NCBI GenBank assembly: GCA_036785375.1
Contig: JAWMAR010000430.1
Coordinates: 496,001 to 560,000 of the forward strand
DNA from: Leucoraja ocellata
Lineage: Eukaryota
Reading direction: 5' to 3'
DNA length: 64,000 bases
The notes below the pieces were generated by a model, which saw only the letters and a list, made by a program, of their open reading frames with translations, was not told where the DNA came from and did not search any database. Positions 225-60,503 of this stretch are shown here, one piece after another. Position 1 is the stretch's first letter, and every line of letters starts with the position of its first letter. The position numbers and the translations under genes are program-made.

Positions 225-358
225 TATGAGAGAGGCAAGGAACAGCAGATGCTGGAATCTTGTGTGGAACACAAAGAGCTTGAGGAACTCAGCAGGTCAG
301 GTAGCATCTCTGGAGGACATGGAACGGCAATGTTTCGGTTTGGCCTCTTCTTCAGACT
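225..358 (-). mobile_element. Penelope-like element terminal-repeat fragment with decayed hammerhead motif
   Basis: Matches the dispersed repeat gcagatgctgg...aactcagcaggtcaggtagcatctctgg...gtttcgg...cttcttcagact, which is contiguous with GIY-YIG coding sequence at 30117-30433. Confidence 0.7.
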
Positions 359-432
359 GCGAGTTAATATGGCCCTCCAAGAAAGTTGGTTTACATAACA
401 TTATTATTTGTGTGTTACAAGATCATGTAAGT

Positions 433-867
433 TAGATACATAGAAACATAGAAACATAGAAGGTAGGAGTAGGCCATTCGGCCCTTCGAACCTGCACTGC
501 CATTCAATATGATCATGGCTGATCATCCAACTCAGTATCCTGTACCTACTTTCTCTCCATACCCCCTGATCCCTTTAGCCACAAGGGCCACATCTAACTC
601 CCTCTAGTTCCCTATAGCCAATGAACTGGCCTCAACTACATTCTGTGGCAGAGAATTCCAGAGATTCACCACTCTCTGTGAAAAATATTTTTCTCATCTC
701 AGTCCTAAAAGATTTCCCCTTTATCCTTAAAATGTGACCCCTTGTTCTGGATTTCCCCAACATCGGGAACAATCTTCCTGCATCTAGCCTGTCCAACCCC
801 TTAAGGATGTTGTAAGTTTCTATAAGATCCCCCCACAATCTTCTAAATTCTAGCGAGTACAAGCCGA
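433..867 (-). mobile_element. CR1 LINE 3' fragment (young family)
   Basis: Translates to GLYSLEFRRL.GDLIETY..LKGLDRLDAGRLFP; (tttctatg)n tail; close to copies at 12403, 22143 and 46803. Confidence 0.93.
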
Positions 868-1879
868 ACACACTCATACTTTGTGTGTCACGTGGTTGTG
901 GGTGAGAGAGAATTTTGTTTTAAATTTGTTTTATTACTTTATTACCACTTGTTTTATTACTAAGTTTTTGGATAACAGAAGCAACATCTCTTCCTGGTTG
1001 TCCAGCCCACTGGGTGAGGAAGGAGTGTTATTCAATTTGCCTTTTATCCTTTAGCATCGGATGCAGTTTGACTTGCACTTGGTGTAATATGTAAACCAGA
1101 TATGCAGTTGAAGTGGACCTGCACATGGATGGACCATGCTTTAAGAATTGCATTCATAATAGAATTCCTCTACACAAGAATTTTAAATCACATTGGTTAA
1201 TAAAAGATCAAATGTGAGGACAAATATTTTAGTTGGGTTACAGATAAACTGTAACTGTAGTGACTGGTAGAGAAGGCTTCAGGGGCGATATGATCTACCC
1301 TTGTTCTTATAATTCCGTGTCAAGGACGAACAAACCATGTACTTACACAGAACGGTGTTGAATTCATGAGCATTCCAACGAGTCTCCCGCCCTATCTAAA
1401 TGTTCATTTAATGATATCTGTGGCAATATGATAATCCAGGCAGTTGGCATTAAAATATGAATTGTTTAATCATGAATGAAGGAATTAATTTTGCAGAAGC
1501 AGTACCCTAGAGTGCAGTAATATCTGTGTAACAGTGCAATGTGATTTTGCATCTTCAAAAAAACAATACATTTTAAATTAGGGAAACGTACCAAATGTTG
1601 TCTCATTTTCAGCCCAATTTCATGGCCCTTGGCACATTTCCTAACTCAGCTGAAAATGGTTCATGCAGAAAAACCTTGATTAAAGGACCACTGTGCTCAA
1701 TTGAAGCATATTCATTACTCAGGATTAGTGGGGTGAATTGGAAGCTTGGTAAATCTTGGGTAGGTTAGTATCTTGCATGGTAGTAAAGGATGTATTACAT
1801 TATCATAAATCAGTCTCTTGCCCTGATTTAATAATTGCCCACTCCTCTCAGTTTTGCACACTTGTCATACAACAGTTCA

Positions 1880-2148
1880 CACCAACCATCGATCCTCTGA
1901 TCACACTAGGTCTATATAATTCCACTTTCTCATCTACTCCTTACACACTATGGACACTTTACAGGGGCCAATGAACCTACAAACCCACATGTCTCCGGGA
2001 TGTTAGAGGAAACCAGAGCACTCAGAGGAAACTCATGTGGTCATGGGGAGAACGTGGGAACTCCACACAGAAAGCAACCGAGGTCAGGATCGAACTCTGC
2101 TCTATGGCGCAGTGAGGCAGCAGCTCTAGCAGTTGCACCACTGTGCTG
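1880..2148 (-). mobile_element. tRNA-derived HE1/V-SINE-like SINE
   Basis: Minus strand has an A-box-like gtggtgcaactgct, B-box gagttcgatcc and central tgtggagttcccacgttctcccc V-domain-like core. Confidence 0.8.
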
Positions 2149-3002
2149 GTAAAATCAACAAGTTGGTTCTGATTGCTGCATTCAGATGAGATCGATGAGA
2201 ACCAGAGCTTTTTGTTGAACCAGTGATAATGTCAACTCTGGGTCAAAATAAAGACTGGAACTTCATTTTGTAACCATTGGTTGTGTGCAATGCCCAAAAT
2301 CAGAATAACACTTCAATATCATCTCATTACATTTAAGCATTTATTTAATTTGTTCTTGCAATCAGCGACAAATTGCTCAATGACATCCTTAAATGAATCA
2401 GCCCCATGAAGACCTATCCATCTCTGCAATGTAGAGTTTCCCTTGACCAACGACATTTGCTGCATGGCATTAGTTCAGCGGGATCCCTGGCATCCAGTAG
2501 GAGTGAAGACATCAAGTGAATTTAGCAGCTAATCGTACTAATGTTCTGCAATGAACAAACAGGAAAAGCAAAATGAACAACATTTGGTTAACATATTCAG
2601 ACCTTCTGAATATAGGTTGAAGCAGCCAGATGATGATAGAAGTTGAAACAACATATGCAGGAAATATCGAACATATTTTGAAGTATTCGTTCTGACATAA
2701 TTGCAGTATACACATAAAATTGTTTTTATGGGTGCTGGACAGTTTGTTCATTTGTAATCGTAATGTACCATTATTGGAAAAAAAATAAAACAGACAGATT
2801 CAATCTATTTTGTAGTAAGACTAGTTACTGCACAATGAAATTGTTATTAGCTCATTAATTTTCCCTGATTGCAGTTAACATTTTGGAATAGTACTGAAGC
2901 AACTCTCAGTTTTGCAAAGAACGTTACGTTTGCCACTGCTAAAAATGGCAATCAAATAGCCACATTGATATGCTGACTGCTAAACATGAACTTTATTCTA
3001 TA

Positions 3003-4072: not shown

Positions 4073-6489
4073 TTAATAGAAACCTAACTTCATGAGTACC
4101 ACAGGCTAGTCATTTTCTCAGGTAGATCGACAATATAAAAAGCTGCAAGCAATTCACATTTGATAAATGGTCTACATAGAATTATTGTATATTTTAATAA
4201 CATCATGAAAAAATCTAATGCAATAATGTATGAATTTGTAATAATAGTTGCCTTTCTTAACAAAAGTTGATTAATGTGCTAAACAAACCCTATAAAAGTG
4301 ATTTTAAATTTGCACCAATTCATGCAATGTTATGGAGTAATTAAAACTAGTAGAAGAGGAGTTAATTCTCATTGCACCACATCTGACCTACTTTAAGCCT
4401 AAAGAAAGACTGCCTTTGATGTAGCCCAATCCTGGTCTACCTGGAGGTATAGGCCTGGATGGATGCCAGAACCGTAACATTGTAATGCTATAACTCTGGA
4501 TTGTAACACTATAATGTACATTATGCAGATCAGCAGATGCCATTTTTTTAAATGTGGCAGAATTCTACATTGAAGCAGGGATATCTAAGTTGAGTGCGGC
4601 CATTTCTGTGCAGATTTCAAAATAGTACAGTTGATCAGGTCAAATGGGAAACGGTGATGTTTTATCACAATAACCACCTTTTGCTAAACGGAGCTATTCA
4701 GTTTTAGTTAGCAAAAGGAAATTTCAATACCTGCTGATAGTTAACCAATTATCTCCTTTATTTGAATTTCGATAATTAATTATAACCCTCTAATTAAATT
4801 GTCCAGGTAAATAATTAGGGGCCTTCTTATTCTGACAATGATAGGATAATTAGCCGATAGACAGGGGATCATTATGCAATCCAATAAATTGCTGGAATTA
4901 AAGTATGGCACAGTGATTCAATTAAACTATCACAATTGGTTAGAACCAGCTCTTAGTTATTATGTTTTAGGTGTTGTTTTACAAACTTTTTAAAATCACA
5001 AATAGAAACAAAGAAAGAAGATAAATCAAATGAATCCTTAGGATAAATATTTTCTGAACAGACGGGTAAAGTATCTGTTTGGATGAGCATTGTTTGCACA
5101 TTTGTGTACAATACCTAACCCAGAATGTGTACAATCAGCTTCCCGAAAGTGCGGCAGAGAGCAATGTTGAATTTCATAACTGGAAAATGTGAACAGGAGA
5201 TGACGAATTTAGACTGTTTTAGTAAATGCCGACGAATCCTATCTTGAGGAATCTTCCGAATAAAATGTGCATTTATTGATCCTGTCAAATTTTAAAGCTT
5301 GAATGATCTGCAGAGCAAGCTTACAATTCACCATCTCCTATTTAATTTAGACATGAAAAATATGAGATCAGTCACTTCATAAAATGAAGGCAAAACCAAC
5401 ATTTATTTGTCACCAGTTCAGGTTTATTTGTCACCAGTTCCTCTTTACAGAGGAAAATAGACTTAACATTTCAGGACACTGACCTTTCATTTGAACAGTT
5501 CTGATTAAATGGTCTTCTTGTGGAATAGTAACTGTTTCTCTCTCCATGGATGTTGTCTGATATGCTGAGGATTTCTTGCATTTACTGTTTATTTTCAAAT
5601 TGCCAGTATCCATAATATTTTAGATGTGAATTGCCCACATTAAATTTTATTATTTTGTTAAATTAATATTTTTCTGTGTTCTCCCTTTTCCCTGAAAAAA
5701 TTGATCACTACCATGTATCTTCAAAGTGCCATGATGGAAATGTCGATATCAGGCTAATAGTTCCATCATCTGAATTTAAATTGAAACTACAAGTTGCAAC
5801 AAACAAGAAGATTCAATGTGGACCAAGTTCAGCAATGATAAATAGGCCATGATTCATTGATGAAGTGTTTCCTTTTTGATTATAATTAGATATTTTGCAG
5901 ATAATATATTTATCTGAAGCAATGGTTGGATTGTAATACACCTGCAGGAACTTTAGCCACCTCTGCCAATGCACAGATCCTTCCTGTGGTGGAATTTTGG
6001 TTCCACAACCCCGTTGCCCAGAATCTGAATCTGTAACCCAGCCGTGCTGCTCTCAGCAAACTGAATAATCCAGGCATTCACAAGAGAGCAAGAGCGTGAG
6101 AATAGCTTACAGGAGGATTTTTTTTTAAAGAAAATTAATGCAGAACTGAAGTTTGTGGACTTGCAGCCACATGAACAAGAGACATACTGTACATGCTTTA
6201 ATCCTGTTCTCCATTGGGGACATCGATTTGTCTACCTTTACTTGATTGGTATTTGCACAGTCAACTGGAAAATGGCACCAATAGGATGTGGTACATGATC
6301 AGAATGCATAACTGAACAAAACCGTAAAGTGAAGAGCATGCATCGTATAGTTGTGCTTTTGATGCTTTTCTTTCCTAAAAACACAAGGGTCTATTCTGTT
6401 CCTATATTATTCCCTACCATTGCCAAAGTTCCTTAAACCTGATCCGTTTCTCTTAGTTTGTTTCCTGAACTGTGGCTGAATGTATGAGG

Positions 6490-6840: not shown

Positions 6841-7051
6841 ATTTGGAGGGCCAGTTTTTTAATGCTGTGTGGCTCTATGAATCTAATCAGGATGGCCTTT
6901 CATATGGGTTCCCACCTTGTTACTGCCATTCAGGGCCAAACAAATTGTTCATAAGCACAACACAGAATGATTGTTGGATCCAAAATGCACTCATTCCTAA
7001 TGCCAAATTTTCTGATGAGTCTCATGTTCGAGTAGCTTGTCTATTTTTGAG

Positions 7052-7192
7052 GTAGACAGAAATGCTGAAGAAACTCAGCAGGTGGGGCAGCATCAATGGA
7101 GCAAAGGAAATAGGCGACATTTCGAGTTGAGACCCTTCTTCAGACTGATATGAGGGTGGGGGGTGGGAAGAAGAAGGGATGAGGCGGAGACA
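7052..7192 (-). mobile_element. Penelope-like element 3' terminal fragment with hammerhead-like core
   Basis: Minus strand gtctgaagaagggtctcaactcgaaatgtcgcctatttcc; same family as 30117-30433. Confidence 0.8.
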
Positions 7193-7811: not shown

Positions 7812-7980
7812 TACAAAATGCAAGAAAAGCTCAGCGGAGCAGGCAGCATCTGTGGAAAGAGAAACAATGCGAATGTTTCAGGTCAAAGACACTCATCAGA
7901 TACATTTTCTCTTTCACAGATATTGCCTGACTTGTTCATCATTTCTGGTATTTTTAACTTTTATTTCAAATTTCCAGTGG
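7812..7980. mobile_element. Decayed fold-back Penelope-like terminal fragment
   Basis: aagctcagcggagcaggcagcatctgtgg...gtttcaggtc followed by the inverted counterpart cacagatattgcctgacttg. Confidence 0.55.
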
Positions 7981-10899: not shown

Positions 10900-11122
10900 T
10901 CCCCAGCCAACAATGGACCATTATAGACTCCACCTTTCCTGAGGTTATCTATTGCTGGCCTTGTTTTGTTCTGGCCTTCTCTGTCCTTTCGTTTGAAGAA
11001 GGGTTCCGACCAGAAACATCACATGTTCGTTTTCTCCAGAGACACTGCCTGACCCGCTGAATTACTCCAGCGTTTTGTGTCTATCTTAGGTGTCAACCAG
11101 CTTCTGCAGTTCCTTCCTACAC
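10900..11122 (+). mobile_element. Penelope-like element terminal fragment
   Basis: gtttgaagaagggttccgaccagaaacatcac...ctccagagacactgcctgacccgctgaattactccagc...ctgcagttccttcctac. Confidence 0.75.
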
Positions 11123-13214: not shown

Positions 13215-13375
13215 TGAGGTTAGAACCAGGTTTGAAACTTCGATCTTCAAACATTCTTTTCCTCCAACGAACAAAGTCTGTCTTGGCATTCATTTCCCTT
13301 CACAAATGCTGCCTGATCTGCAGAGTTCCCCAGTACATTTTCTTTGCTCAAGATTCCAGCATCTGCAGTCTCTGG
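13215..13375 (+). mobile_element. Decayed Penelope-like terminal fragment
   Basis: cacaaatgctgcctgatctgcagagttccccagtacattt...gattccagcatctgcagtc matches the dispersed family. Confidence 0.55.
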
Positions 13376-15034
13376 CATTGCAATAGTACAATTACCTTCC
13401 TGGATATTGACCTTGTAGGATTTTTCTGATAAGCTACATTGGTTATATTTTTCATTGTAGGCTACAAATTAGATGATTTATCTGATTGATATAAATCGGA
13501 TTTGGATTCTAGTCAGTTCCATATTCATCAGCCAAACACATGCACTTGTCATGTGTACATTTACAACTCAAAAAAAGGTCAGGCTTCAAATATTATTTTT
13601 CCAGGTTCTGTACCACCAAATAAAATGTACAAATCCAAAGTGTTAGCAATTCTAATATTGACAAGTTTCAATATTAAATTAATGCGAGTGAAAAATAGAT
13701 TCAGCACATAAAGACATGGCCACAGATATTTTATTGATTAGCTGATTTAACAAAATTGCTGCCATTTATTCATGTTAGGATTGGATGGGATGGTCAATAA
13801 ACATTCACTAATATTGTTATGCAGTTTAATAGATTGCCACAAACACTGCTGTGACCCAGGTCATTCCTTATATTAGTTATCAACAGGTACCTGTTGGTAA
13901 TTCAACTTCCTTCAGAAGCGCAAGGCTGATTGTTAGAGCAAAATGGTGGAAGTGCATCATTCCTTTCTATAAAGTCTATTATTGCTACCTTCTGCGATAA
14001 ATAATAACACTAATTTCTTATGGGCCACTGATACTCAACAGAAGTTGCTCTTACCTTTGCAGAAGTTGGTTTGCACATTGCAGAGTTGCATTCAATATAA
14101 CTTACACAGTGAAACATATAGTTGCCCTGTATAGGCAAAAGAAAATGATACCATCACCGAATACCAAAACACTGAAGCACCTAAAAATGTCATGACCTTG
14201 TGGTTCATGTTTTGTGCATTATTTTATTTATGACAAACTTAAAAATTGAGTTATAAAATTGATTGCAAAGTGCCATTGCTATTTTCTAGTGCATGATATG
14301 AATTTGGTTTAGATGGTTTGCCTACTTTAGAACAATTGGATATTGTTTATTCACATGCAAAGCGCAATTGATGCTTCTACTGTGAAAGCGAAGAACTTTG
14401 TACAATTAACAGTCAATGAGGATGGCAGATCAGAAAGCAGATCTAATCAGCTTGGACATGCCTTTCTTCATTATCATCAATAATGAGAAAAGTCTTGGGA
14501 GGTAATTTGAAGGAGAATTCATCTTACATTATTCAGTAGAGTTGAAGAGAGTATTGATAAGATGGAATAAATTTGTGTCAGCGATAAGTTAGAGGTAGTT
14601 TGTATTACTAACTTGGGAATCATGGCGGTGGTCCCATTTGCCCTTCAAAACAAAGCAGAGTTGGAACAGATGTGCCGAAGTCTCAGTGGACTTGTCAGAT
14701 AAGGCACAGTCCTGGATTGCTCCACGATCCACACGCCTGTCCTGAGATATCTGGGGAACAATGTACCCAGGATATTCACTTTTCGAGGACATTGATGGCA
14801 CAAGAGACTGCCTGTGCTAGAAGCTGTAGTACCAAACAATCTGCTGGATGGAGGAACTCAGTGGGTTGAGCAAATGTGTGTCACCACTTCCCCTCTTTTC
14901 TTTTTAATGACAACCTCCCTTCTGCACTCTCAGTCCTGGTTCAGGGTTTCGAACAGAAACATCGGCCATTCATTTACACCTACAAACGTTGATCGACCCA
15001 TTGAACTCATCCACAGGTTGATTTCAGAATCCAC

Positions 15035-15350: not shown

Positions 15351-16034
15351 AGCAAACTTAGTGACTTTTTAAAACGTAACCAGACAGTGTAAAGAACAGA
15401 ATCATTGCTGTGCAGTGCACTTTTCTGCCTTTCCTTTGAATCTATTCCAGGTCCAAAAAGCATCCTGATTAATTATTGATCACATCAACCTCCAGATTTC
15501 TTAGTTTTGTCCTGTCTTCAATTTTGCATTTCCTCCAGTTTCCTTCCTAAAATATCCAGTCGTGGCTTTTACAGAATCTTCACATGTTGACCTTGTCTTT
15601 GCCTTTCCAAATGGTATTAATTATTAATTCATTGAATAATGTTCAACTATCTCATTGACCAGCTGTTATGAAAATTTGAGGGCTAAGAAGGATGATTTCA
15701 ATTTGTCCTTTTGAATTTGAGATCAATTGGATTGATCTAACAAAGATCAGGGACCTATTCTAATTTATTCTGAAAATTGGTGCTGGAATGTGTAACTAGA
15801 TAAGTATAGAGAGGTGTGAATGGTAAGATTTAAAAGTCTGGGGTAAGATATAAAAACCACAACACAAGCTAGCAATAACAAGTATCAATCATGCTGTAAT
15901 CAGAACATTAACATTAATGCAACTTCCAAAAATACTTGCTCAAATTACTTCTCATTTATTCACATCTTGGCAATGCATTTTTTAATATTATTTGAATGAT
16001 ATAGCATTAAGCAGGCCTTTGGCCCACCAGATGA

Positions 16035-16129
16035 TAGACACAAAGTGCTGGAGTATCTCAGCGGGTTAGGCAGCATCTCTGAAGAAAAAGGATAGGTGAC
16101 GTTTCAAGTTGGAACTCTTCTTCAGACCC
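16035..16129 (-). mobile_element. Penelope-like terminal fragment inserted in a SINE
   Basis: agacacaaagtgctggagtatctcagcgggttaggcagcatctctg...ggtgacgtttc...ttcttcagaccc. Confidence 0.8.
16094..16129 (-). ncRNA. Putative minimal type I hammerhead ribozyme
   Basis: RNA sense GGGU-CUGAAGA-A-GAGU(UCCA)ACUU-GAAAC-GUC-ACCU: conserved core, helix I GGGU/ACCU, helix II, palindromic ACGU helix III. Confidence 0.6.
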
Positions 16130-16400: not shown

Positions 16401-17248
16401 CTTTCTTCCCTTTTGTTGTCTTCGCTACAGCAGACCAAATCGATGCAGTATCACCTACAGCAGACGATGTCTGGGACTTCCCATCCACATTCTCCTCTGC
16501 AATTTACCTGCATAAACGCTGAAGCTCTTACTTCAATGCCAGGTACCTTCTGCAGATAGGGAAGACCAACTGGAAGGTCAATACTGGGGAAAGGCTGGAG
16601 AAGGAGATAATTGCTGAGGATGTGGAAGGAAAGGATAATGGTGATTAGAAAGATGAAGTCAATGATTACTGAAGTAGTCAATATGGCAGATCAGTTGTGA
16701 TCGTAACCAATATAAGAGGAGATTGCTATGAGAGAGAATTCAATTAGGCAGAGGTGTCTCTGTTGCAAGGGTCAGACTGGGCAAAATTTGAATCTTGTGA
16801 TCACTCCACTTCCTGCTTCAGTTGCATGCAAAATACCGTTGACCCAAAATTTGCGGAGAATTGTCAGCAGTTTCTGCATGGCAGCCAATAATTTCTCATG
16901 TAGGGGACGGCAACTTAGGAATACCTGCGGGAATGCAGAGGTCCTTATGTTACTCATAATTGCTTGCAGAATGATTTCCGAATCGGACTGTGCACTGATG
17001 GGTAGAGCACAAGGTTGCAACCAATGCAGAACAGTTGCCCTGGGAAATCAGCCCTAACAATATATGTCATGTTTTACTTCGGAGTCACGTGAGTGACTAC
17101 GTGAAGAACCCACCCAGCGCGCAGGTGCGGCATTACGTCAGCAGTGCAACAGCGGCAGCAGCTGGAGCCAGGCTCTCCAGCTGCAGCATAAAGACAAGAC
17201 CTCAGGTAAGTGCCTTTTTTGTGTTACAGAGTCGCTCCAGGGAGAATT

Positions 17249-18466
17249 ATGGCCTCTCGAAAGCGACCAGCCAGGAGGACTGCCTGCCCAACTCCACCCG
17301 AGGAGGGGTCCATAGCTGGGCGGCAGCCTCTCGCAGCGGAGGAGCCTTTTCAACGCTCCCACTCACCCGACACCGAGCCGCCCCCAGTGCTGCAGATATC
17401 GACGCCCCGCACAGGGAGGAAAGCTACTCATAAGACCGACCGGCCGGTGTCCTCCGATTCATCGGAGGAACGGGAACGCTCTCCACCACCGAAAAGGGGA
17501 GACGCTCGGATCAGCTGCATGAGGCAGCTCCTAGAGCGCATGATTGATGAGGAGATGCAGGCTAGGCATCTCCCAGGAGGACGGGCTTTGGCCTCCTCCT
17601 CTCCACACCCTTCTGTACCCTCTATGTTCGAGGGCAGTAAGGGAGGCCAGGACTGGGCTGGCCTATCCCAAGGGCAGGCGGAGGATACCATCAGCATGCC
17701 GGGCGTGCTAGAAGAAGAGCTACTGGGTGTAGTGGGCCGATACGCAGCGCCCCCAACGACTGGGATGGTATTGCCACCCAGAATGGCGGCCAGCATAAAC
17801 AGGCTGTCCAACAACCCGCTGCAGGACAAGGCCGTCCAGCAGGCCCTTGACACGTACAGAGCGCCAGAGAATTGCGAGGCGCTGAGGGTCAAAACGGTCA
17901 ATGGGCAGATATGGAACCAGCTGGGGCAGCAGATCAGGGCTCACGAAGTTAAGATGCAGCGAGTCCTGAAGCTCCACTCAGCAGCCATCACCGCCTTTGC
18001 TCGGTCCGTTGGGAATGAAGACCTAACCATACCCCAGCAGGATGCTCTCGCACTGATGTGCAGCACCACCTATGAGCTCAATAGCCTACGGCGGGACAAC
18101 ATCAGGCCTGCCCTCAACCCAACATATGCCGGCCTCTGCAAAGCTCCAGCGCCCGAACGAGAGGCGCTGCTATTTGGTGCAGATCTGGCCAAGAAACTGA
18201 AGGAGTTGGAAGAGGCGGCCAAACCAGTAGGCCTCATGAGGGCAGGGCCAGGACCGAGCAGGGTGAAGACACCCAGTTGGCAGCACGCCTCAGCAGCCAC
18301 CAGCAGGTACCGAGCTGGTGAAAGCCTGGTGACCGCCTCCCACTACCCCCAGAGCTCTTTTTTAGAGCGGGGCCCAGGGCGGAGCCGTGGGAAGATGCGC
18401 CGCCCCACCGCAGCACCAACACGGACAACCTTGGGCCAAACCTACCGAAAACGGCCCCACAAATAA
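17249..18466 (+). CDS. DIRS ORF1 gag-like protein
   Basis: Uninterrupted ORF of about 405 aa from the first ATG (MASRKR...); PENC..L.V, PALN..Y..LC and LFG.DL motifs; first ORF position in the element. Confidence 0.82.
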   Translation: MASRKRPARRTACPTPPEEGSIAGRQPLAAEEPFQRSHSPDTEPPPVLQISTPRTGRKATHKTDRPVSSDSSEERERSPPPKRGDARISCMRQLLERMIDEEMQARHLPGGRALASSSPHPSVPSMFEGSKGGQDWAGLSQGQAEDTISMPGVLEEELLGVVGRYAAPPTTGMVLPPRMAASINRLSNNPLQDKAVQQALDTYRAPENCEALRVKTVNGQIWNQLGQQIRAHEVKMQRVLKLHSAAITAFARSVGNEDLTIPQQDALALMCSTTYELNSLRRDNIRPALNPTYAGLCKAPAPEREALLFGADLAKKLKELEEAAKPVGLMRAGPGPSRVKTPSWQHASAATSRYRAGESLVTASHYPQSSFLERGPGRSRGKMRRPTAAPTRTTLGQTYRKRPHK

Positions 18467-18468
18467 AC

Positions 18469-20336
18469 ATGGAGGTAGGTGGGTCTGGTTCCTGTCAACA
18501 TACACAGACAAAGGGTGTTGTATTAACAGGAGGACGTTTGAGGTTCTTCAAGCATGTTTGGTGCTCCCTTACTAACAATAAGTTTATACTCAACAGTATT
18601 AGTGGATACAAAATTGAATTCAAACCAGGCATAGAACCGCCAGTTCAGCACATGCCCCAAAGGGTATTCCTTCCCTCAGCAGTTGAGAAGGTAGAAGGAC
18701 AAGCTGAACTTGATCGGCTCGTGGCTAAAGGCATCATAGAAATGACCACACACGAGCCGCAAGAATTTGTATCAAATATTTTTCTCAAATCCAAAAAAGA
18801 TGGTGGATGTCGCATTATTATTGATCTGACGTCACTTAATCAGTCTGTTGAGTATCAACATTTCAAAATGGAGACATTTGTCACTGCCAGACAACTGATC
18901 TCCAAGGGATACTACATGGCAAGCATAGATATCAAAGATGCTTACTATTTGGTGCCTTGCCCAATGGTTTAACGACAGCTCCCAGATTATTTACAAAAAT
19001 TCTCAAAGTGGCCATGAAAAAATTGAGAGAACTAAAACATTTAGTCGTGGCCTATCTGGACGATGTTCTCATATTAGGGAGAACAAGGGAACAAGCTGTT
19101 GCAGGAGTTTTAGCCACTAAACAACTCCTTGAAACTTTGGGATTCATCCTTCACCCAGATAAATCAATATTGGAGCCTACTACTAACATGGATTAACTAG
19201 GCTTCACTATTGACACTATTCATATGACTGTCACTCTGCCCAGAGACAAAAAAGTTTCACTCATTGAAGCTTGTAACCATTTAATTGCTACACCGCAACC
19301 TAGGATACGGCATGTAGCCAGAGTTATTGGCTCTATAGTAGCAGCATTCCCGGCTGCCCAACATGGGCCCTTGCATTATCAAAATTTACAAAGAGCAAGG
19401 ACTCATGCATTACGTCTTAATAGGGGGCATTATGACCGCAAAATGGAATTACCCACTGAAGCCAAATCAGAACTTCAGTGGTGGGTTGATAATATTTGGC
19501 ACAGTCACAGTCCTATCGCCGTAACCAATCCTAACATAACCATTACAACGGATGCCAGTGCTTTAGGCTGGGGAGCTACTAACTCCATAGACAGCACGGG
19601 TGGCAGATGGACTAACTCAGAGGCATCGCTACTACAATCACTGGGCATTAACTTCTTGGAAATGCTCGCCGCCTTTTATGGGCTAAAAGCATATGCATCT
19701 GATATGCGGCATGTGCATGTTAGGATTATGATCGACAACACTACGGCGGTATCTTATATCCAGCACATGGGTGGCATAAAATCAGTATCATGCGACAAAT
19801 TAACTGCTATAATCTGGCAATGGTGTGTCGAGAGACATATTTGGCTATCAGCTGCCTATTTACCAGGCAAGCTAAATTTAGTGGCGGACACCAGGTCACG
19901 AAAATTCAATGACAACATCGAATGGATGTTGGACCCAAAATTATTTGCTAAAATTGTCAAGCAATATGGTACGCCAGATATAGATTTGTTTGCGTCTAGA
20001 TTAAATCACCAACTACCCATGTATGTGGCTTGGGAACCAGACCCAGAGGCAGCAGCGGTAGATGCCTTCACGCTGGATTGGGGAAATTTCTTTTTCTATG
20101 CTTTCCCTCCCTTCTGCCTCATCAGTCGGGTACTCCAGAAAATTCAGGCAGACTCAGCCTCTGGCATTCTGGTCGTGCCCGACTGGCCTACCCAACCATG
20201 GTTCCCAATGTTCCACGACATGGTGGTAGAGACACCTATGGTCCTTCATAACCACCCCCAATTATTGACTCACCCGGTAACTGGCATTAGCCATCCATGC
20301 CACCAAAAATTGAACCTCCTGGTTTCCAGATTTTGA
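18469..20336 (+). pseudogene. DIRS pol (RT + RNase H + N6-adenine methyltransferase-like), disrupted
   Basis: RT motifs KKDGGCRIIIDL, IDIKDAYY, PNGL..APR.FTK, YLDD; RNase H TDAS, INFLE, IDNT, NLVAD; MT DLFAS and YAFPPF. Frameshifting deletion near 18956 and a stop at 19194-19196. Confidence 0.93.
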
Positions 20337-39149: not shown

Positions 39150-39310
39150 TGTAGGAATGAACTGCAGATGCTGGCTCATACCGAAGATAGACACAAAATG
39201 CTTGAATAACTGCAGGTCAGGCAGCGTCTCTGGAGAAAAGGAATAAGTGAAGTTTCGGGTCATTTCAATTGAAGAACAGTTCCAACCCTAAATGTCGCCT
39301 ATTCCTTCTC
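39150..39310. mobile_element. Penelope-like terminal fragment with short inversion
   Basis: gtaggaatgaactgcagatgctgg...ctctggagaaaaggaataagtgaagtttcgggtc, then inverted tgaagaacagttccaacccta aatgtcgcctattcc. Confidence 0.75.
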
Positions 39311-39552
39311 TCAAGTTAATAACGGTGCTTGCCAGATTAAAGACAATGTAATATCAGCTTTTGGGAATAGTTGATGATGCTGAACATTTCATAGTCCTGA
39401 AGTTAGTAATGCTCATGTTAACCATTCTGTTAATTGGTCTCTCAGTGGCAGTAATGGTATTTTTTTAATCTTGTGTCTTGAGCAAAATGTCCATTTCAAC
39501 AGAGTGTTTTAGTTTTGAGGGACGTAAGAGGCTTTACCATGAAGGACTAAGT

Positions 39553-41197: not shown

Positions 41198-41216
41198 AAG
41201 GTTTCTCACTGTTTAT

Positions 41217-41620
41217 GGACACAAAATGCTGGAGTATCTCAGTGTGTCATAGAATGGCCTCCTGCACCTATTGTCTATTGTCTAAACATAGAAACATAGA
41301 AAATAGGTGCAGGAGTAGGTCATTCGGCCCTCCGAGCCAGCACTGAGAGCTATATCTAACTATCTCTTGAAAACATCCAGTGTATTGACCTCCACTGTCT
41401 GCTATGGCAGAGAATTCAACAGATTCACAACTCTCTGGGTGTAAAAATATTTACTCATCTCTACCTCTTATTCTTAAACTATAACCCCTGGTTCTGGACT
41501 CCCCCAACATCGGGAACATTTTTCCTGCATCTAGCCTGTCCAATCCCTGAAGGATCAGGGTCAGGCAGCATCTCTGGAGAAAAGGAAAAGGTGACGTTTT
41601 GAGTGAAGTTTCTTCAGTCT
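41217..41620 (-). mobile_element. Penelope-like terminal fragment interrupted by CR1 3' pieces (about 41250-41550)
   Basis: gacacaaaatgctggagtatctcag | CR1 with catagaaa tail and GLDRLDAGKMFP | gggtcaggcagcatctctggagaaaagg. Confidence 0.75.
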
Positions 41621-42055
41621 GAGAGGATCTCATTGTTTATCCTATCTACACCCCTCATGATTTGCACCTCACGTCAGCCTCCAACATTCCTCATCTTCCT
41701 TTTCCCTTCCCCTCATCAACACCGCCAATAGTGGCTCGGGGTCTGCTCTCCTTGTCTACATGCACCAGTGCCCTCTCACCCAATTTCCCTTTCCAGTTTT
41801 ACAAACCTCTCAGAATCCAAAATGAAAGGGTTGTGCACTGGTACAATGAGAACAACCTATGCAATAGACAGATGTCGTTCCTGAGGTTATGCTGAAACTT
41901 TTCCCTGAAGTTTTAAGGGAGCTTTTCACTGGAGATACAACTTGGCTGTTGCCTTAAACCATAAGAAGTTGTCCTTTGGAGGCATGAGAAAGCTGCTGCC
42001 TTACATTTACGGAGGAAGTTCTCTGGAATTATGATGAGGCTGTGAAGCAACTGCT

Positions 42056-43547
42056 TCAAGTCAAGTCAAGTCAAGTCAAGTTTATTTGTCACATACACAT
42101 ACGAGATGTGCAGTGAAATGAAAGTGGCAATGCTCGCGGAACAACAAAACAACCAAACAAATTATAAACACAATCATAACACACATATTATTTTACATAA
42201 TAAATAATAGAAGGAAAAACGTTCTGTACAGTTAGTCCCTGGTGAGAAAGGCGTTTACAGTCCGAATTGCCTCTGGGAAGAAACTCCTTCTCAACCTCTC
42301 CGTTCTCACTGGATGGCAACGGAGGCGTTTGCCTGACCGTAGCGGCTGGAACAGTCCGTTGCAGGGGTGGAAGGGGTCTCTCATGATTTTGTTTGCTCTG
42401 GAGTTGCACCTCCTGTTGTATAGTTCCTGCAGGGGGGTGAGTGAAGTTCCCATAGTGCGTTCGGCCGAACGCACTACTCTCTGCAGAGCCTTCTTGTCCT
42501 TGGCAGAGCAATTCCCGAACCAGATGGTAATGTTCCCGGACAAGATGCTTTCCACCGCCGCTGCGTAGAAGCACTGGAGGATCCTCGGAGACACTCTGAA
42601 TTTCCTCAATTGCCTGAGGTGGTAAAGGCGCTGCCTTGCCTTACTCACCAGTGCTGAGGCGTGTGATGACCATGTCATATCCTCAGAGATGTGGACTCCC
42701 AGATATTTAAAACAGTTCACCCTATCCACAGAATCCCCATTTATACTCAATGGAGTGTACGTCCTCGGATGATGTGCCCTCCTAAAGTCCATGATCAGCT
42801 CCTTCATTTTTTTGATGTTCAAGAGGAGGCTGTTCTCCTGGCACCAGAGTGCTAGATCAGCCACCTCCTCCTGGTAGGCCCTCTCATCATTGTCTAAGAT
42901 CAGGCCCACCACCACAGTGTCATCAGCAAACTTAATTATTGAATTGGAGCTGAACCTAGCCACACAGTCATGTGTGTACAGGGAGTACAATAGGGGGCTG
43001 AGGACGCAACCCTGGGGCGATCCTGTGCTCAGGGTGAGGGACTTCGATGTATTCCCTCCCATCTTGACTACCTGGGGCCTGGCGGTGAGAAAGTCCAGGA
43101 CCCAGGCACACAGGGAGGTGTTGAGCCCCAATTCCAGTAGCTTCCCGGCCAGTCTGGTGGGGACTATCGTGTTGAAGGCTGAACTGTAGTCTATAAACAG
43201 CATCCTCACGTAGCCCCCCTTCTGGCTGTCCAGATGGGAGAGAGCGGTGTGCAAGACCTGGGAGACCGCATCGTCCGTGGACCTGTTCGGACGGTATGCA
43301 AACTGCAACGGGTCCATGTTCCGAGGGAGGAAGGCGCAGATGTGATTCTTCACCAGCCTCTCAAAGCATTTCATGACTACCGAGGTAAGGGCCACCGGAC
43401 GGTAGTCATTCAGGCAGGCTGGGGAGGCATTTTTTGGTACCGGTACAATGATGGATTTTTTGAAGCAGGCAGGGACCACGGACTTGTCCAGGGAGAGGTT
43501 GAATAATGTAGTGAGCACTGGAGCTAGCTGCGTAGCACAGGACTTCT
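42056..43547 (-). mobile_element. 5'-truncated Rex1/Babar-clade LINE with intact RT frame
   Basis: About 437 aa uninterrupted: [52 protein letters not shown]; 3'UTR and (cttga)n tail. Confidence 0.95.
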
Positions 43548-44049
43548 GCATTATATATATTTTTAAAGGTTATTCCTACATAAAATCCTGAATTCTCTTG
43601 TTCCATTTGCAAAACTAACATTCATTCACTTTCAAATCCAATATAAAAATGGACAACATGTATGCCAATAATCTGAATATTTTTAAGTACGGTTTGTGCT
43701 GTTCTTCACATAGTTTCTGAGATGTGACACATTTTAATTTGTAAGTGGATGATAGCCTAGGTTTAAATTTTCAGATGCACAGCTTGATTCAAGATTTGGC
43801 CTTTGAGGTATCACAATGGACTTACCATTGTTAATTTAATTTCTTGTAGAGGTTAAAAGATCAAAATGTTAAGAAGGAAAATGCAAGAAGGAACAAAACA
43901 TTGGTAAATAATAATCGCAAATGTTTTGAAAGGACAATAGTTCAAATTCATTTAGGCTTTGTCCACCTATTTGCTTCTTGTCTTGAAGACAAGGAGTTGT
44001 ATTTAAGATGGTTCTACTGTTATACATGGGTGGCCTCCAGTACTTTGGA

Positions 44050-46593: not shown

Positions 46594-46697
46594 TGTAGGA
46601 AGGAACTGCAGATGCTGGTTTAAACCGAAGATAGACACAACAAGCTGAAGTAACTCAGCGGGACAGGCAGCATCTCTGGATAGAAGGAATGGTTGAT
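46594..46697 (-). mobile_element. Penelope-like terminal fragment
   Basis: tgtaggaaggaactgcagatgctggtttaaaccgaagatagacac...gtaactcagcgggacaggcagcatctctgg. Confidence 0.8.
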
Positions 46698-47043: not shown

Positions 47044-48118
47044 ATTAATCCTTTAGCTTCACGATTATAGTTTTTCCCCACCTTCTTAAACTAATTTTAT
47101 TTCCTTTCTTACCTCATTCCTTTCTTACCTACATGGCCAGAATACCATTCTATCAGTTCCCTTGTATCAATCTCATCCTTGCACCAATATCCCTGATTCT
47201 CAATATCATTCTCTCCCCATTCCAATTCATTAATATATATTGATAATTCCCTCATTATCTTTCTCTTATCTTTTCCTTATCTCATTATTCCTTTGCTTTA
47301 AACATATCCGAAGAGCATTTCAGGTGAGGTAAAGCCGCACAATGACTGAAACGTGATCACATTTCTCCTCATGGAAAATGCAGGTTGTGTTTTTTTTCCC
47401 ATTACTTCCAGCATTTTAACTCTTGTACTAACTCTGGAATGCAGCTGGTTCTCAGTTAAATAGTAAATCAAAAGCTTCAATTGAAATTATTGTTCAGATC
47501 ACTGCTCCCTTGTCCAAAAGAAAGATTCTCGCATGATTAAACTCATGTTCCAAGTCATGGGCTTCTCAACAAAGCATTAAAGACACCTTCAGCAAAATAA
47601 CGCTCATCCCAATGTCGTTGTACAACAAGATTTATAACATTTTATATTCTCCCAGAAGTAAGACAGTCATAACATAGATGTTAGCTGCTGATCAAGGCAA
47701 AGGAGAATTCAAAAATAACTGGGATAAATGCAGATAATGGTAAAAACACTCAGTGGTTCTGGTGAAGGGTCTTCAACCAGAAACATCTATTCCATATCTC
47801 TTTCCACGGATGCTGCCTGGCATTTATATGTGTCAGGATTTTCTGTTTTTATTTGAAATTTCCAGAATGTGCAGTTTTGTTTTATTTACATTTTGTTTTA
47901 GTGAGGGTGGTGCCTCACAGCTCCAAGGCTCTGGGTTCAATTCTGACCACAGGTGTTACTGCATGTGTGCAGATTATGCATGTATTCTACATGGGTTTCA
48001 TTCATGCTTTGGTTTCCCCTCATATTACAAAAAGGTGCCTGTGATTAAATAGCCACAGTTAATTATGTCCATCTCGGGAATCACACAAGAGTTGATGAGC
48101 ATATGTGCGAGTGACACC

Positions 48119-48324
48119 AAAGATAGACTCTAAATGCTGGAGTAACGCAGTGGGACAGGTAGCATCTCTGAAGAGAAGGAACGGGTGACATTTTGGGTGA
48201 AGAAAGGTCTCGACCCGAACCATCACACATTCCCTCTCTCCAGAGATGCTGCCTGTCCCGCTGAGTTACTCCAGCATTTTGTGGATATATTCAGTGTAAC
48301 CAGCATCTGCAGTTCCTTCCTACA
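48119..48324. mobile_element. Fold-back (inverted dimer) Penelope-like terminal fragment
   Basis: Left arm aaatgctggagtaacgcagtgggacaggtagcatctctg and right arm cagagatgctgcctgtcccgctgagttactccagcattt; junction at the hammerhead core. Confidence 0.85.
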
Positions 48325-52687: not shown

Positions 52688-54169
52688 AATATTTTTAGCG
52701 CAAAAACAGTAACCCCACCACCACAAATTTTGTAGTAGAATATCCCGCATTTGGGGACATTGCAGGCATCAGCACAACCGAAGTGCAATGGGATAGCCTC
52801 ATCCTGGGAGATCGGCCATCATGACCACTGATTCTCCCCATGCCAGGTAAGAATTTGAGTTGAAGGCTCCAACATCCTAGTACAGGCTACTACAACAATG
52901 ACATTCTCCGTGCATTCCAGATTTCTTTAGAAATGGACGATGCCTATAAAGCAGACCATGGGAGTTCACACAGCCATAATAAAATGGATCAAACATCATA
53001 TAGCTACAGCAGTAACCACCATCACCACTTTCAGAAGGCTGTGGATGCATGTATTAAAATGAAGTAAAATTACAAGTTTGATAGGATAAGTAAAGTCAGG
53101 TGAGTGTATGAGGACAAACAACTTGAGTTATATGAGTCATGAAATAAGTGAATAGTTGAGCAGGTGTAAGGAACCAAATGGCCTCAACCTGTTCCCTTGG
53201 AGACTTTTGCTTTTGCTTCACTGAGGTCGTACAAATGAGTTTACTTCCAAATTGTCATCTGCCATCACATCTTCTCTGGGAAACGGCACTTTAACTGCCA
53301 CCAAGCTAATATCCATATATTTGTTTCCCTGACTTGAAAATTTGAATTGTCTTGGAGAAAATGAGAAAATCAAATGGGATTGTCAGCTCTCTTTAGTCTG
53401 AAGAAAACAGAATCCAAATGCTGGAGGCAAAACTAATCATCTACATATAGAGGCATTACTGTGCCTATGTGCTGAGCTCTAAGAAGCATTAACTCGATCT
53501 GAACAATAGCTATAAGAAAATGATTCACCCACTCACTTTTATGTACAATGGTGGCTCTATACTAGCATTCTTAGCATGAAAATATACATTGACACTTAGC
53601 CAATTTTTTTAAAGATCCATTGAGCTAGTGAAGGGGCCTTTTTTTATTAATGGATTTAACAATTCAATTTAATTTCTGGGTAATTGTGTTGTTACATTAT
53701 GTAGTTGGTAATATATTCATAGATCGTTCACATAATGTGCAGTATATATACAACATTCTCGTATTATGGTAATAATGTTGAATGACTGTCATATAGCCCA
53801 GGCATGTGTTGCGAGTAGCGATTGCACTTCCATTCTTTAGTACTTTTGATCTGCTTTATTGCAGCAGTGTGAACTCCCTTTGTAGGAATGGTCCATTGCT
53901 AATGGTGCCTGGTTGTATGAAGAATCCCATCACTCTGCATAAATCCATGATGTTGAAGATGTTCTCTTTATTTATAAATTCAAGTTTAATGGGCTGTAAG
54001 TAAGGTAATTTGAGTCACCGGCTGGCTGTGCAACATAATTATGATTTCACCATGTTACACATTGTCAATAATTTCAAAGCAATACATTTGACTTACTAGA
54101 AAGTATTTTCTGGGTAGGTGATGGATTATTTGCCTGGGGTAGCAAGTGTTTGAATTACTCTTGTTATAA

Positions 54170-55445: not shown

Positions 55446-55521
55446 TTATAACGGTACCCAGACTGTTATACCTCTGCTGTCGCCTTCTCGTTGACATATG
55501 ATGGCAAGGATTTGGAAGAGG

Positions 55522-56476
55522 GAATGATTTGGAAGAGGGAAATAGGAGGAACATTAGCAAGTTGGCGGATGACACAAAGCTGGCTGGCAGTGTGAACTGT
55601 GAAGAGGATGTTAGGAGGATGCAGGGTGACCTGGACAGGTTGAGTGGCAGATGCAGTATAATATAGATAAATGTGAGGTTATCCACTTTGGCGGCAAAAA
55701 CAAGGGGGCAGATTATTATCTCAATGGGGTTAGGTTAGGCAAGGAGGAGGTGCAGCAAGACCTGGGTGTCCTTGTACACCAGTCACTGAAAGTTGGCGTG
55801 CAGGTACAGCAGGCAGTGAAGAAAGCTAATGGAATGTTGGCCTTCATAACAAGAGGATTTCAGTATAGGAGTAAAGAGGTTCTTCTGCAGTTGTATAGGG
55901 CTCTGGTGAGACCACATCTGGAGTATTGTGTCCAGTTTTGGTCTCCAAATTTGAGGAAGGACATCCTTGTGATTGAGGCAGTGCAGCGTAGGTTCACGAG
56001 ATTGATCCCTGGGATGGTGGGACTGTCATATGAGGAAAGATTGAAAAGACTAGGCTTGTATTCACTGGAGTTTAGAAGAATGAGGGGGGATCTTATAGAA
56101 ACATATAAAATTATAAATGGACTGGACAAGCTAGATGCAGGAAAAATGTTCCCAATGTTCGACGAGTCCAGAACCAGGGGCCACAGTCTTAGAATAAAGG
56201 GGAAGCCATTTAAGACTGAGGTGAGAAAAACCGTTTTCACCCCGAGAGTTGTGAATTTGTGGAATTCCCTGCCACAGAGGGCAGTGGAGGCCAAGTCACT
56301 GGATGGTTTTAAGAGAGCGTTAGATGGAGCTCTAGTGGCTAGTGGAATTAAGGGATATAGGGAGAAGGCAGGCACGGGTTATTGATTGGGGACGATCAGC
56401 CATGATCACAATGAATGGCGGTGCTGGCTCGAGGGGCTGAATGGCCTCCTCCTGCACCTATTTTCAATGTTTCTAT
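55522..56476 (+). mobile_element. CR1 LINE 3' fragment, well preserved
   Basis: 244-aa open frame to the natural stop ...EKAGTGY*, then 3'UTR and tail. Confidence 0.95.
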
Positions 56477-56896
56477 TTCAGTTGTGGCATTCCACCAGAT
56501 CAACTAAAGAACAGCATGAATCCAATCAATATTGTAATAAAAGGGTTTTGGACTTGAAACACTAACAATGTTACTTTTTCAACATATGCTGTTTGATCTG
56601 CTGTGAGTTTTATTGCTGAACATGATGTTTTTAGGTCACATTTCCAACATTTGCATTTTTTATAAATGTTAAATCCATAGATGTTTGGCCAATTGAGTAT
56701 CAACGTGTGGCTATCCAACATTGACAATCCTGTTCTTAACATAACTAGTGCTTTAGTATTGTTGGTAGGGGATAAAAGGAACCAAGAAGTTGCACGTAAG
56801 CACTTTTCAAAGGTACATCTGTGGAGACTTACTGCATTGAAACAGAAAAGTACTACGTGTAAGTTATAGATAATCTGGTGTTTGGAATTCTCAGTT

Positions 56897-58330: not shown

Positions 58331-58794
58331 TAAGTGACAAAGTGACGATGACAAACATTCAAACTCTTGACAGCCCTTCCAAGTTGGTTCAGCTGGGACA
58401 TGGTTTCACTGGTCGTTAAAGAAATTCTATGTCGGCTGCCATTTCTGATTGATGCACTCTGTGCTTCATTGAATCTCACTGATCAGCCTGGAGCTTGCTT
58501 AACCTGAAGAAGTTGACACTTGGTGCAGGAGTAATCAGCAAGCAACTGGCAGGTGTAAACAACCCGTTGTTCTGTGGATGAAACTACAGGGCAACCACAC
58601 GTACTCATAGAGACCCACGTGAGGATCCATCTCCCTTTGATCTTAAGTGTTGTAAAATCTACGGCTTCAGTAGGATTACAGACAGGCTGACCCTTAGGTA
58701 CATTCAGCCAAAGATCTTTGAGTGCTGGTGTTCATGAGGATCCCAATACAAACGCAACACTTCTGTTGGTTCATAGAGAAGTTTGTCCATAGTG

Positions 58795-59005
58795 CTACTA
58801 TCTACTTCGTCAGAAACCGTTGGCCTATCTTTGATTGGACTTTACAGGATTTTATCTTGCACTAAAACTTATTCACGTTATTCCCTTTATCATGTATTGG
58901 TGTACTGTGGATGGCTCGATTGTAATCATGTATTGTCTTTCTGCTGACTGGTCAGTACACAACAGAAGCTTTTCACTGTACCTCGGTACACGTGACAATA
59001 AACGA
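58795..59005 (+). mobile_element. Rex-like LINE 3'UTR fragment
   Basis: Reverse complement of 37365-37570. Confidence 0.8.
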
Positions 59006-59819
59006 AACAGAAGAAGACCATCAGAACAGTAGGCAGCGTAACAGGCAGTTGAGAGGTTGGAGTTCTTTGAGTGGAGTTTCCATTTTCCCAACATCTTTCC
59101 ACACCAGCTATCTCTTGGCCAAGTGGTACACTACTTTATCTCAGTAGGGAACTCATATGGCATGGATCAGGCTGGCTTGGATGATGGTAATGATTATGTA
59201 CATAAAGATGTTATCCTATTTAAAATAGCATAAATCAACAGTTTAAATGACTATTGTTAAGGTCAGTATAGAATACCCCAAATAAAGATCCACTGAGGAT
59301 GATTCCTGCATTAATTGGTACTATTAATACACTCCTCAATGCTTTTGCAAATAGTGCACAGCACATTTGTAAGTACTATCTCTCTATTACGTCCTTTTTT
59401 ATTAAGGGTCTTTGGGATTCACCATCTACGTGCCTCAAAGCAGAGTTTAGAGGGGGACCTGCACAACAGTGGCCACTCTCCATAGTGGCCACTGCTCTGT
59501 TACCACGCACTGTTCTGCTCACTTGTGATTCACCAGGTATGAACACATCAGACATACCCACTGGTGCTCACACCTTTGTTAGTGTCAGGTTGGCAGCATC
59601 CTGTGATGATGCACCTTTTGAAGCAATGAGTTCATCTGAGAAAGTTCGTCATCTCTGGGCAGGGGCTACTCATCCTTGCACATTTGCCCTGTTGGAGAGA
59701 TGCAACAGGTATGATTAATCATTGGAACATAAAGATGTAGCAAATCATCATGATTAAGGTGGTAGTATTTTAAGTTGTGCTGATTTTCGGTTAAGTTAAC
59801 TTTGTCTTATTGTTGCAAA

Positions 59820-60215
59820 AAACAAGCTGCTGGAGGAATTCAGCAGTCCAGGCACCATCCGTTGAAGTGGACAGTAAATGGAAGGTCGGCGTTTTAGGTC
59901 AGGACGCTTATTCAAGAATCACTTGAGACCAGACACAAAAAGCTGGAGTAACTCAATGGGACAGGCACCATCTCTGGAGAAAAGTAATGGGTGATGTTTC
60001 GGGTCGAGATCCTCATCACCCATTCTTTCTCTCCAGAGATGCTGCCTGCGTTACTCCAGCTTTTTGTGTCTATCTTCAGTTTAAACTAACATCTGCAGTT
60101 CCTTCCTACGCATTCACCCAAGACCAATCATTTCCTTCCACAGACGCCGCTTGACCCATTGAGGTCCTCCAGCATCTTGCTTTTTGCTCATGAATCTAGC
60201 ACCTGCAGTCTCTTC
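59820..60215. mobile_element. Nested fold-back Penelope-like terminal fragments
   Basis: Inner hairpin of about 59931-60110 (agacacaaaaagctggagtaac ... gttactccagctttttgtgtct) inside an older outer inverted pair. Confidence 0.8.
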
Positions 60216-60404
60216 TGTCACTGTTGTGATTTTGGAGATATGAGTTGCAGAAACTATGTTTATCACCCCGCAACAATGAAGTCTCCATGAGTTAAAGATC
60301 TCGAACAGTACCAGGTCCACTTAAAAATGAGGAGCCAACCTGGAAAAACTGAAACAAATGACCATATGAGTGCAAAACAGCAAAAGCAGTATGTTCTAGC
60401 CAAA

Positions 60405-60503
60405 GGTAGACAAAAGTGCTGGAGGAACTCAGCGGGTGAGGCAGCATCTACGGAGCGAAGGAATAGGTGACGTTTCAGGTCGAGACCCTTCTCCAGTCTG
60501 AAG
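60405..60503 (-). mobile_element. Penelope-like terminal fragment
   Basis: Minus strand ctggagaagggtctcgacctgaaacgtcacctattcc (hammerhead core with one substitution). Confidence 0.8.

Follow-up and report, generated by a model that had tools for sequence, protein, structure and literature searches.

The abundant short repeats in a 64,000-nt stretch of the genome of Leucoraja ocellata (GenBank assembly GCA_036785375.1, contig JAWMAR010000430.1, positions 496,001–560,000 of the forward strand; hereafter 'the window') are very probably the 5′-truncated ends of a Penelope-like element (PLE) of the Neptune type, of which intact tandem arrays are found in the same genome, and the minimal hammerhead motif carried by these stumps is likely inert, decaying baggage. 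An earlier note, made from the sequence of the window alone, had proposed a high-copy, mostly non-coding family of Penelope origin whose hammerhead ribozymes could cleave host intronic RNA. The origin, the copy number and the non-coding nature of the family were confirmed by our analysis; the proposed cleavage of host RNA was not.

Copy number and state of the repeats

A repeat profile was built from ten copies of the window and used in nhmmer searches, with the reversed window as control. It gave 28 matches with E < 0.5, of which 26 had E < 0.001, compared with a single match (E 0.39) in the reversed window, which establishes the dispersed family of which roughly 20 copies had been claimed. 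A refined profile likewise found 26 matches (E ≤ 0.01) to a repeat of ~100 nt, about one per 2.5 kb.

The genome-wide number was estimated from 117 stretches of 10 kb, which together with the window comprise 1,231,633 bases. The stretches were taken at round coordinates on contigs of at least 1.4 Mb, except that one was placed in a match-rich area and two beside the window. This sample contained 650 copies (reversed control 0). The mean of 5.33 copies per 10 kb across stretches, scaled to an assembly size of 3.44 Gb, corresponds to about 1.84 million copies in the genome (bootstrap 1.58–2.10), and the 100-nt model by itself covers 4.0% of the sampled DNA. Genome-wide, 33,685 exact matches to one core pattern were counted (control 0). 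Coding sequence is seldom attached: 14 of 310 copies have a protein match on the sense strand in the 600 nt upstream, and pieces of the reverse transcriptase (RT) core are rare in the sample (6 vs 650 ends).

The motif itself is real, but the statement that many copies retain it was too generous. CUGANGA is kept in six of the 26 window copies, GAAAYGUH also in six, and the complete minimal hammerhead fold in only three (core starts 7143, 16125 and 30211). Among the sampled copies, 55 of 650 (8.5%) keep the complete fold; the hammerhead descriptor gave 61 matches in the whole sample and two in the reversed control. The two copies that had been named as the best, 16094–16129 and 30184–30214, are both present at these positions on the minus strand. 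The Rfam search that had been suggested, run on the window, did not detect the hammerhead family at E ≤ 1.

The parent element and its intact arrays

Thirty copies of the young subfamily are 95–98% alike and have a common 3′ end but differing 5′ ends; the longer ones encode RT and a GIY-YIG endonuclease (EN) in one frame. A search of the genome with the N-terminal part revealed many long open frames with tandem neighbours. Two intact arrays repeat every 3,946 nt and contain three and four hammerheads. These near-identical arrays with open frames are located at G000:C8, about 5,604,000–5,617,000, and at G000:C300, about 1,138,000–1,151,500, and their full units differ by 0–3 mismatches in 3,800 nt. 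The head-to-tail unit of 3,946 bp is organized as hammerhead, tail, ATG, RT, Cys linker, GIY-YIG, stop and a pyrimidine-rich untranslated region (UTR). Its open frame has 1,233 residues, or 1,221 from the first ATG, which lies 164 nt after C3 of the hammerhead. Judged from its sequence, the array element is a recently or currently active vertebrate PLE of the Neptune type.

The element protein contains the motifs YIDD, C-x4-C-xx-C, IYCVRC, YIGET, RFAEH and EEQHLI. The Pfam matches to RVT_1 (E 1.5e-6) and to GIY-YIG (E 0.0013) fall short of the database's cut-offs; the nearest Atlas clusters are RT/GIY-YIG proteins at 0.98, and a sequence search of the PDB gave no match. The linker that joins RT to EN, CGRSRCNTC at residue 1088, fits CX2-5CxxC, which characterizes the Neptune or Nematis clades (Craig et al., 2021, PMC8557442; this and the other papers are cited from parts of their texts). 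The parent thus appears to be an EN-containing (EN+) PLE of the Neptune (or Nematis) type, the clade being assigned by the linker motif. The other marks of EN+ PLEs were also found, namely one open reading frame (ORF) holding RT and C-terminal GIY-YIG, tandem units or pseudo-long terminal repeats (pLTRs), an inverted 5′-truncated neighbour and an optional tail.

The stumps match the end of this element. The two 3′ ends are common to both, and some stumps have target duplications of 9–15 bp. Relative to the core, the arrays end at +94 and +129. In the sample, 558 copies extend to the 3′ end, and 232 of these have the optional tail motif. In EN-linked copies, which have UTRs of about 90–260 nt, the hammerhead variants are those of the stumps.

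A young 5′-truncated copy lies at 30118–30418 (minus strand) of the window, with 94.7% identity over 301 nt to the intact tandem unit. It comprises the GIY-YIG end, the stop, the pyrimidine-rich UTR, an intact minimal hammerhead and the 3′ end without the optional tail. The copy had been described, as 30117–30433, as contiguous with a GIY-YIG C-terminus, and the final 29–30 residues of the element protein are indeed encoded at 30331–30420 (translation RHRKLEEQHLIFRLGSLHPGGMNIEFSQFC). In its hammerhead (30184–30214, minus strand), the core at 30205–30211 is followed by an extra A at 30204, helix II at 30192–30203, GAAAC and GUU; helix I has 2 bp and the cut is predicted after 30184. At the 5′ truncation point the sequence has a short tandem duplication (30419–30433, minus strand), and the insertion has an 11-bp target-site duplication (left copy 30102–30112, right copy 30434–30444).

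In most long copies the element UTR, e.g. 30212–30330 (minus strand) of the window, resembles an intron, with a donor-like word where the stop codon lies and, just before the core, a pyrimidine tract that ends in CAG. Splicing is unsupported, although it may occur in rare RNA: the predicted spliced sequence had six genomic matches, none at the expected joint, no such joint was present among the 15 RNA joints listed of 68, and target duplications adjoin the core.

The hammerhead motif and its variation

Six subfamily consensuses were derived from 297 near-full copies, and all six contain the core CUGANGA / GAAA / NUH. Among the 61 descriptor matches, an extra base follows A9 in 54 and the spacing is minimal in 55. 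With this extra base, G10.1–C11.1, a 15.2–16.2 palindrome and no true helix III, the motif fits the published consensus of PLE minimal hammerhead ribozymes (min-HHRs), CUGANGAH – G..helix II..C – GAAAN – palindrome – NUH (Cervera and de la Pena, 2014, PMC4209133). The earlier description, of a type I hammerhead that is minimal and has a palindromic helix III, holds. As both the extra base and the palindrome belong to that consensus, the parallel to the hammerhead of the viroid CChMVd is unnecessary for either; CChMVd has no mention in PMC6155905.

Helix I consists of 2 bp, followed by a 2×2 mismatch and 2–3 more possible pairs, and is shorter than the 3–5 bp expected of a min-HHR. It has 2 bp in 35 of the 61 descriptor matches and three or more in nine; the intact window copies at 7143 and 30211 also have 2 bp. 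The 4-bp helix I of the copy at 16094–16129 is partly borrowed, its 5′ flank being a separate repeat with 24 other matches up to the junction. A 2-bp helix I is also seen in the rows for Culex, D. virilis and Oikopleura of the published alignment (PMC4209133).

It had further been noted that helix II differs between copies yet still pairs. GGGU/ACCC versus GGGU/GCCC is a genuine subfamily difference, while GAGU/ACUU is a private change in one decayed copy. As a sign of selection the pairing is unsupported: genome-wide, the compensated double change of the second helix II pair, of the kind present in one copy, was counted 91 times and a non-pairing double change, taken as control, 103 times. 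Changes of helix II among the subfamily consensuses are one-sided only, and its diversity is low, unlike that of the published min-HHRs (PMC4209133). An apparent 'compensated family' with a GGC/GCC helix II (10 of 32 matches) was discarded as a chance match to antisense CR1 ORF2 at the tested locus. Antisense CR1 ORF2 holds a chance CUGAUGA..stem..GAAA that passes the hammerhead descriptor and is a source of false matches in such genomes.

Folding models of the young subfamily have the core paired to the pyrimidine tract 3′ of the cut site and give helix II a probability of 0.01–0.12; for the copy at 16125 it is 0.77–0.90. The folding energy of the young copy is −7.1 kcal/mol for a double hammerhead and −28.8 kcal/mol for the dimer minimum, which is weak evidence as tertiary contacts are ignored.

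Inserted copies differ from their subfamily consensus at 230 of 2906 core non-CpG sites (7.9%) and at 1314 of 14312 downstream sites (9.2%). G12, the general base of the hammerhead (PMC6155905), is changed in 25% of copies and usually lies within a CpG. Apart from a small effect at A13/A14, which is taken up below, the inserted copies appear to decay as if neutral.

Possibly, the motif is no ribozyme even in the active parent, and the terminal ~90 nt are kept solely as a binding or priming signal for the protein. Among 23 EN-linked long copies, the likeness of the hammerhead segment (0.78) equals that of the next two segments (0.78 and 0.78; UTR 0.60), so that catalytic selection is inseparable from selection on the protein-binding end. 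The weak helix I, the GUU site in the young subfamily and the uncut templates described below agree with such a signal, and for the anole PLE cleavage is dispensable in vitro (Frangieh et al., 2024, PMC11167929). However, none of 11 core columns varies among the six consensuses compared with 13 of 55 downstream (about p 0.07, one-sided by hand, not significant), and all five columns that vary within the motif remain compatible with the fold (loop bases in two, U–A to U–G pairs in two, and C17 to U17 in one). The same core is also kept across animal PLEs (PMC4209133). We consider a mere signal without ribozyme function rather less probable than not.

The proposed cleavage of host RNA

The RNA data consisted of four raw runs from related organisms, of which 5–6% of two bulk and 1–3% of two single-cell runs were analysed. 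The motif was covered thousands-fold in all four. We saw no pile-up of read starts or ends at any place in these runs. In the bulk run that appears to be stranded, both strands are about equally represented over the motif (3,578 vs 3,254), and the coding part is skewed 2–3:1, antisense under the usual convention.

That the dispersed copies are working ribozymes which cut host intronic RNA is, on these and the following data, highly improbable. The proposal could draw on the 8.5% of copies with a complete minimal fold (on the order of 150,000 when scaled), on the abundance of the motif in the relatives' polyA RNA, on 234 close head-to-tail core junctions genome-wide and on an antisense skew in the single-cell runs. 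Yet only two same-strand intact pairs within 1 kb occur among the 61 descriptor matches, and there is no read-end peak. Published min-HHR monomers were uncleaved and dimers were cleaved weakly (PMC4209133), eight of nine Xenopus retrozyme dimers were uncleaved (Li et al., 2026, bioRxiv 10.64898/2026.07.22.740005), and the anole hammerhead required protein (PMC11167929). The 2-bp helix I, the low helix II probability with the core paired to the pyrimidine tract in the young subfamily, the neutral-like decay and the equal strands in the bulk run point in the same direction. A transcript across an inverted pair would contain one sense hammerhead in a long hairpin, with no cis dimer possible.

Arrangement, ends and insertion

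Among the sampled copies, 230 of 650 (35%) form 115 5′–5′ pairs within 30 nt, in addition to five face-to-face and 23 tandem pairs; three back-to-back inverted pairs lie in the window. Eight inverted junctions fall exactly at the palindrome of the motif's 5′ edge, and this junction occurs 1,496 times genome-wide. Target duplications of at least 9 bp (9–15 bp) were found for 26 of 276 isolated copies (control 2.3).

There is no peak of 5′ ends at the hammerhead cut site among the sampled DNA copies (15 starts at model positions 31–38, 23 at 21–30 and 19 at 39–46). A start at the cut site was not seen in any of 22 long copies, 16 of which continue through the upstream hammerhead. This indicates that the templates were mostly uncut.

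We also considered whether tandem junctions preserve fossils of cleavage. A pattern requiring GTC (234 matches) had suggested joins at the cut site. With an anchor on GAAA only, the first 100 of 700 matches, tallied by eye, had match lengths spread over 20–35, and the modes at 25 (13) and 32–34 (35) both fall at short shared words; the idea was dropped. Mini-arrays exist at G000:C73:7728093-7728209 (core junctions with a 31-nt period) and at sampled loci (66-nt period, element 3′ part without CUGANGA), and may be retrozyme- or minisatellite-like offshoots.

By analogy to the anole element (PMC11167929), both target strands would be nicked by the element protein, and reverse transcription would be primed on uncut RNA at either of two sites that lie downstream of the hammerhead and about 35 nt from each other. 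Early drop-off of reverse transcription would then leave solo stumps. Inverted pairs may arise by pairing of two cDNAs or by fold-back at short palindromes (the motif's 5′ edge, helix II). Cleavage, if any, would be weak and occur in transcripts of tandem arrays, with hammerheads 3,946 nt apart and ACGU pairing, or with the help of protein, and not in solo copies.

Several observations weigh against inert, truncated ends as the full explanation. First, the core is less changed than the downstream sites (odds ratio 0.85, p 0.03), an effect that comes from A13/A14 at 2%. Second, the 5′ edge is sharp: 134 of 237 non-inverted core-reaching copies extend 0–11 nt 5′ of C3, although the exact edge is blurred, as unrelated DNA extends 0–9 nt in 56 of 60 controls. 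The relatives' RNA reads also depart from the reference at this edge, random truncation does not account for it, and none of the 22 long copies stops there. Third, in 16 full inverted pairs the two arms resemble each other hardly more than unrelated copies of the same subfamily do (0.81 vs 0.80; 8 of 16 pairs of the same subfamily), so that fold-back and twin priming are not distinguished. Fourth, in both single-cell runs antisense reads over the motif outnumber sense reads by about 7:1 (20,956 vs 2,849), which could mean loss of sense RNA, although we would attribute the skew to oligo-dT priming on the A-rich strand. Finally, the RNA evidence comes from fragmented short reads of relatives and is blind to rare or fast-degraded cuts.

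The sharp edge raises the possibility of a self-propagating family resembling short interspersed elements (SINEs): the active Neptune-type PLE would have spawned a stump with an initiator-like start at the 5′ edge of the hammerhead, and the PLE protein would copy the short, uncut stump RNAs from internal priming sites to the RNA 5′ end. Among junctions defined by target duplications, 19 of 26 lie at −9 to +4 of C3. The word YYANWYY, which we take to be the initiator consensus, spans the edge in 22 of 30 EN-linked copies. If this scheme were true, the initiator edge would explain why the start is sharp and also why helix I has 2 bp. An internal promoter is known for the Penelope pLTR of D. virilis (PMC2377424), and internal priming has been shown for the anole element (PMC11167929). 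However, the 5′ ends are scattered over −1 to −6 and are not at one base, and an added G is not clearly enriched (10 of the 23 non-A bases at −3 are G). None of the 22 long copies begins at the edge, where an initiator start would suit stumps but not long copies, and the EN-linked long copies share the hammerhead variants of the stumps. We consider self-amplification of the stumps unlikely and prefer truncation of the parent element during its own insertion.

Relation to known elements

Both motif and element are of an already known kind, and the family is a new member of it. We did not find it described in the literature searched, which did not cover Repbase/Dfam, subscription papers and some supplements. 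The word 'Penelope' is absent from the main text, as far as available, of the little skate genome paper (PMC10115646), and the part of the min-HHR alignment examined has no row for a cartilaginous fish (PMC4209133). As in the PLEs of that study, motifs are mostly single and dispersed and derive from truncated elements, with opposite-strand pairs and few tandems ~3 kb apart. With the EN+ PLEs of the Neptune/Nematis type (PMC8557442) the element shares the single RT and GIY-YIG ORF, the CX2-5CxxC linker, the pLTRs, heavy 5′ truncation, an adjacent inverted copy, an optional tail of 30–40 bp and a hammerhead near the end.

The closest experimental parallel is PAc, a Poseidon element of the green anole (PMC11167929), which has the same hammerhead at the pLTR–ORF junction and two 3′ ends ~35 nt apart; the array ends at +94 and +129 resemble its two priming sites. 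Its RNA template is uncut, as here, and RNA-seq ends at the cut site are lacking in both. PAc differs in its clade and in its ATG, which lies in stem II and not far downstream of C3 as in the skate element. The near-identical arrays with open frames of 1,221 residues offer a second vertebrate system, beside the anole, for the role of the PLE hammerhead, and the statistics of the junctions set limits on the ways in which PLEs insert.

Non-LTR retrozymes are likewise non-coding, hammerhead-bearing derivatives of PLE pLTRs, and PLE-related retrozymes have been reported in one chondrichthyan genome (bioRxiv 10.64898/2026.07.22.740005). Retrozymes are defined as tandem repeats in which every unit has a hammerhead, whereas the copies in the window are solo or inverted; small retrozyme-like tandem subsets occur elsewhere in the genome.

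Published descriptor counts are about 4,000 for coelacanth and 9,000 for Xenopus (PMC4209133), compared with 33,685 exact matches to one pattern and about 1.8 million decayed ends here, which were obtained by a different method. The highest count named for PLEs in the cited part of PMC8557442, about 37,000 3′ ends of Naiad in a crab, is also far lower. At about 1.8 million ends versus thousands to tens of thousands, the skate genome would have the largest load of hammerhead motifs among these counts. Inverted pairs, to which a third of the copies belong, would form hairpins of ~95 bp, so that double-stranded RNA would be more likely than cleavage to affect the host.

Copies and other features in the window

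Apart from the young copy, two copies with intact min-HHRs were detected with the descriptor, both on the minus strand: 7051–7189 (core start 7143, also found with the profile), which retains ~49 nt of upstream UTR, and the short copy 16033–16128, whose helix II in the hammerhead at 16094–16129 is decayed yet pairing. The following copies were found with the profile. CUGANGA is kept in a short copy that has lost GUH (268–359, minus), in an old copy with a decayed 3′ core (7812–7901, minus) and in a copy with a broken helix II (41558–41622, minus); a further short copy has one change in the 5′ core, CUGGAGA (60405–60501, minus). The core is broken in a short copy with the optional tail (10990–11116, plus) and in old copies at 14937–15013, 29876–29972 and 47758–47821 (all plus). 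The 5′ core is absent or broken in the short copy 26384–26471 (plus) and missing from the old copy 33771–33849 (minus). The copy at 46599–46697 (minus) begins near model position 32 and has a tail, and the old copy at 59819–59914 (minus) is in tandem with its neighbour at 59931. Fragments comprise the 3′ part alone (5530–5591, plus), the 3′ part (60123–60180, plus), the 3′ hairpin region (41216–41249, minus), a piece at 13290–13338 (plus) and a very old one at 56542–56605 (plus).

The three back-to-back inverted pairs are 39186–39315 (39186–39262 minus, 39269–39315 plus), 48122–48319 (48122–48202 minus, 48195–48288 plus, with a tail to 48319) and 59931–60074 (59931–60017 minus, 60014–60074 plus).

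A GC-rich region with purine runs at 63003–63762 is possibly a promoter or first exon; it contains a 133-residue frame that ends beside a masked stretch and has no Pfam match. A match to U1 small nuclear RNA (81.5 bits) at 52694–52854 (minus) has a damaged last stem and is likely a pseudogene. Overlapping frames of 418, 216, 114, 379 and 338 residues occupy 17210–21307 (plus), the last with a tyrosine recombinase domain (PF00589, E 3.8e-7); judged by this layout, the region is probably a DIRS-type retrotransposon. Pieces of long interspersed elements are located at 22327–24831 (minus), 42232–43569 (minus) and 55630–56385 (plus); the frames of such elements in the window include a CR1-like one of 834 residues (RVT_1, E 5.9e-32), an RT of 445 residues (E 1.5e-29) and further CR1-like fragments.

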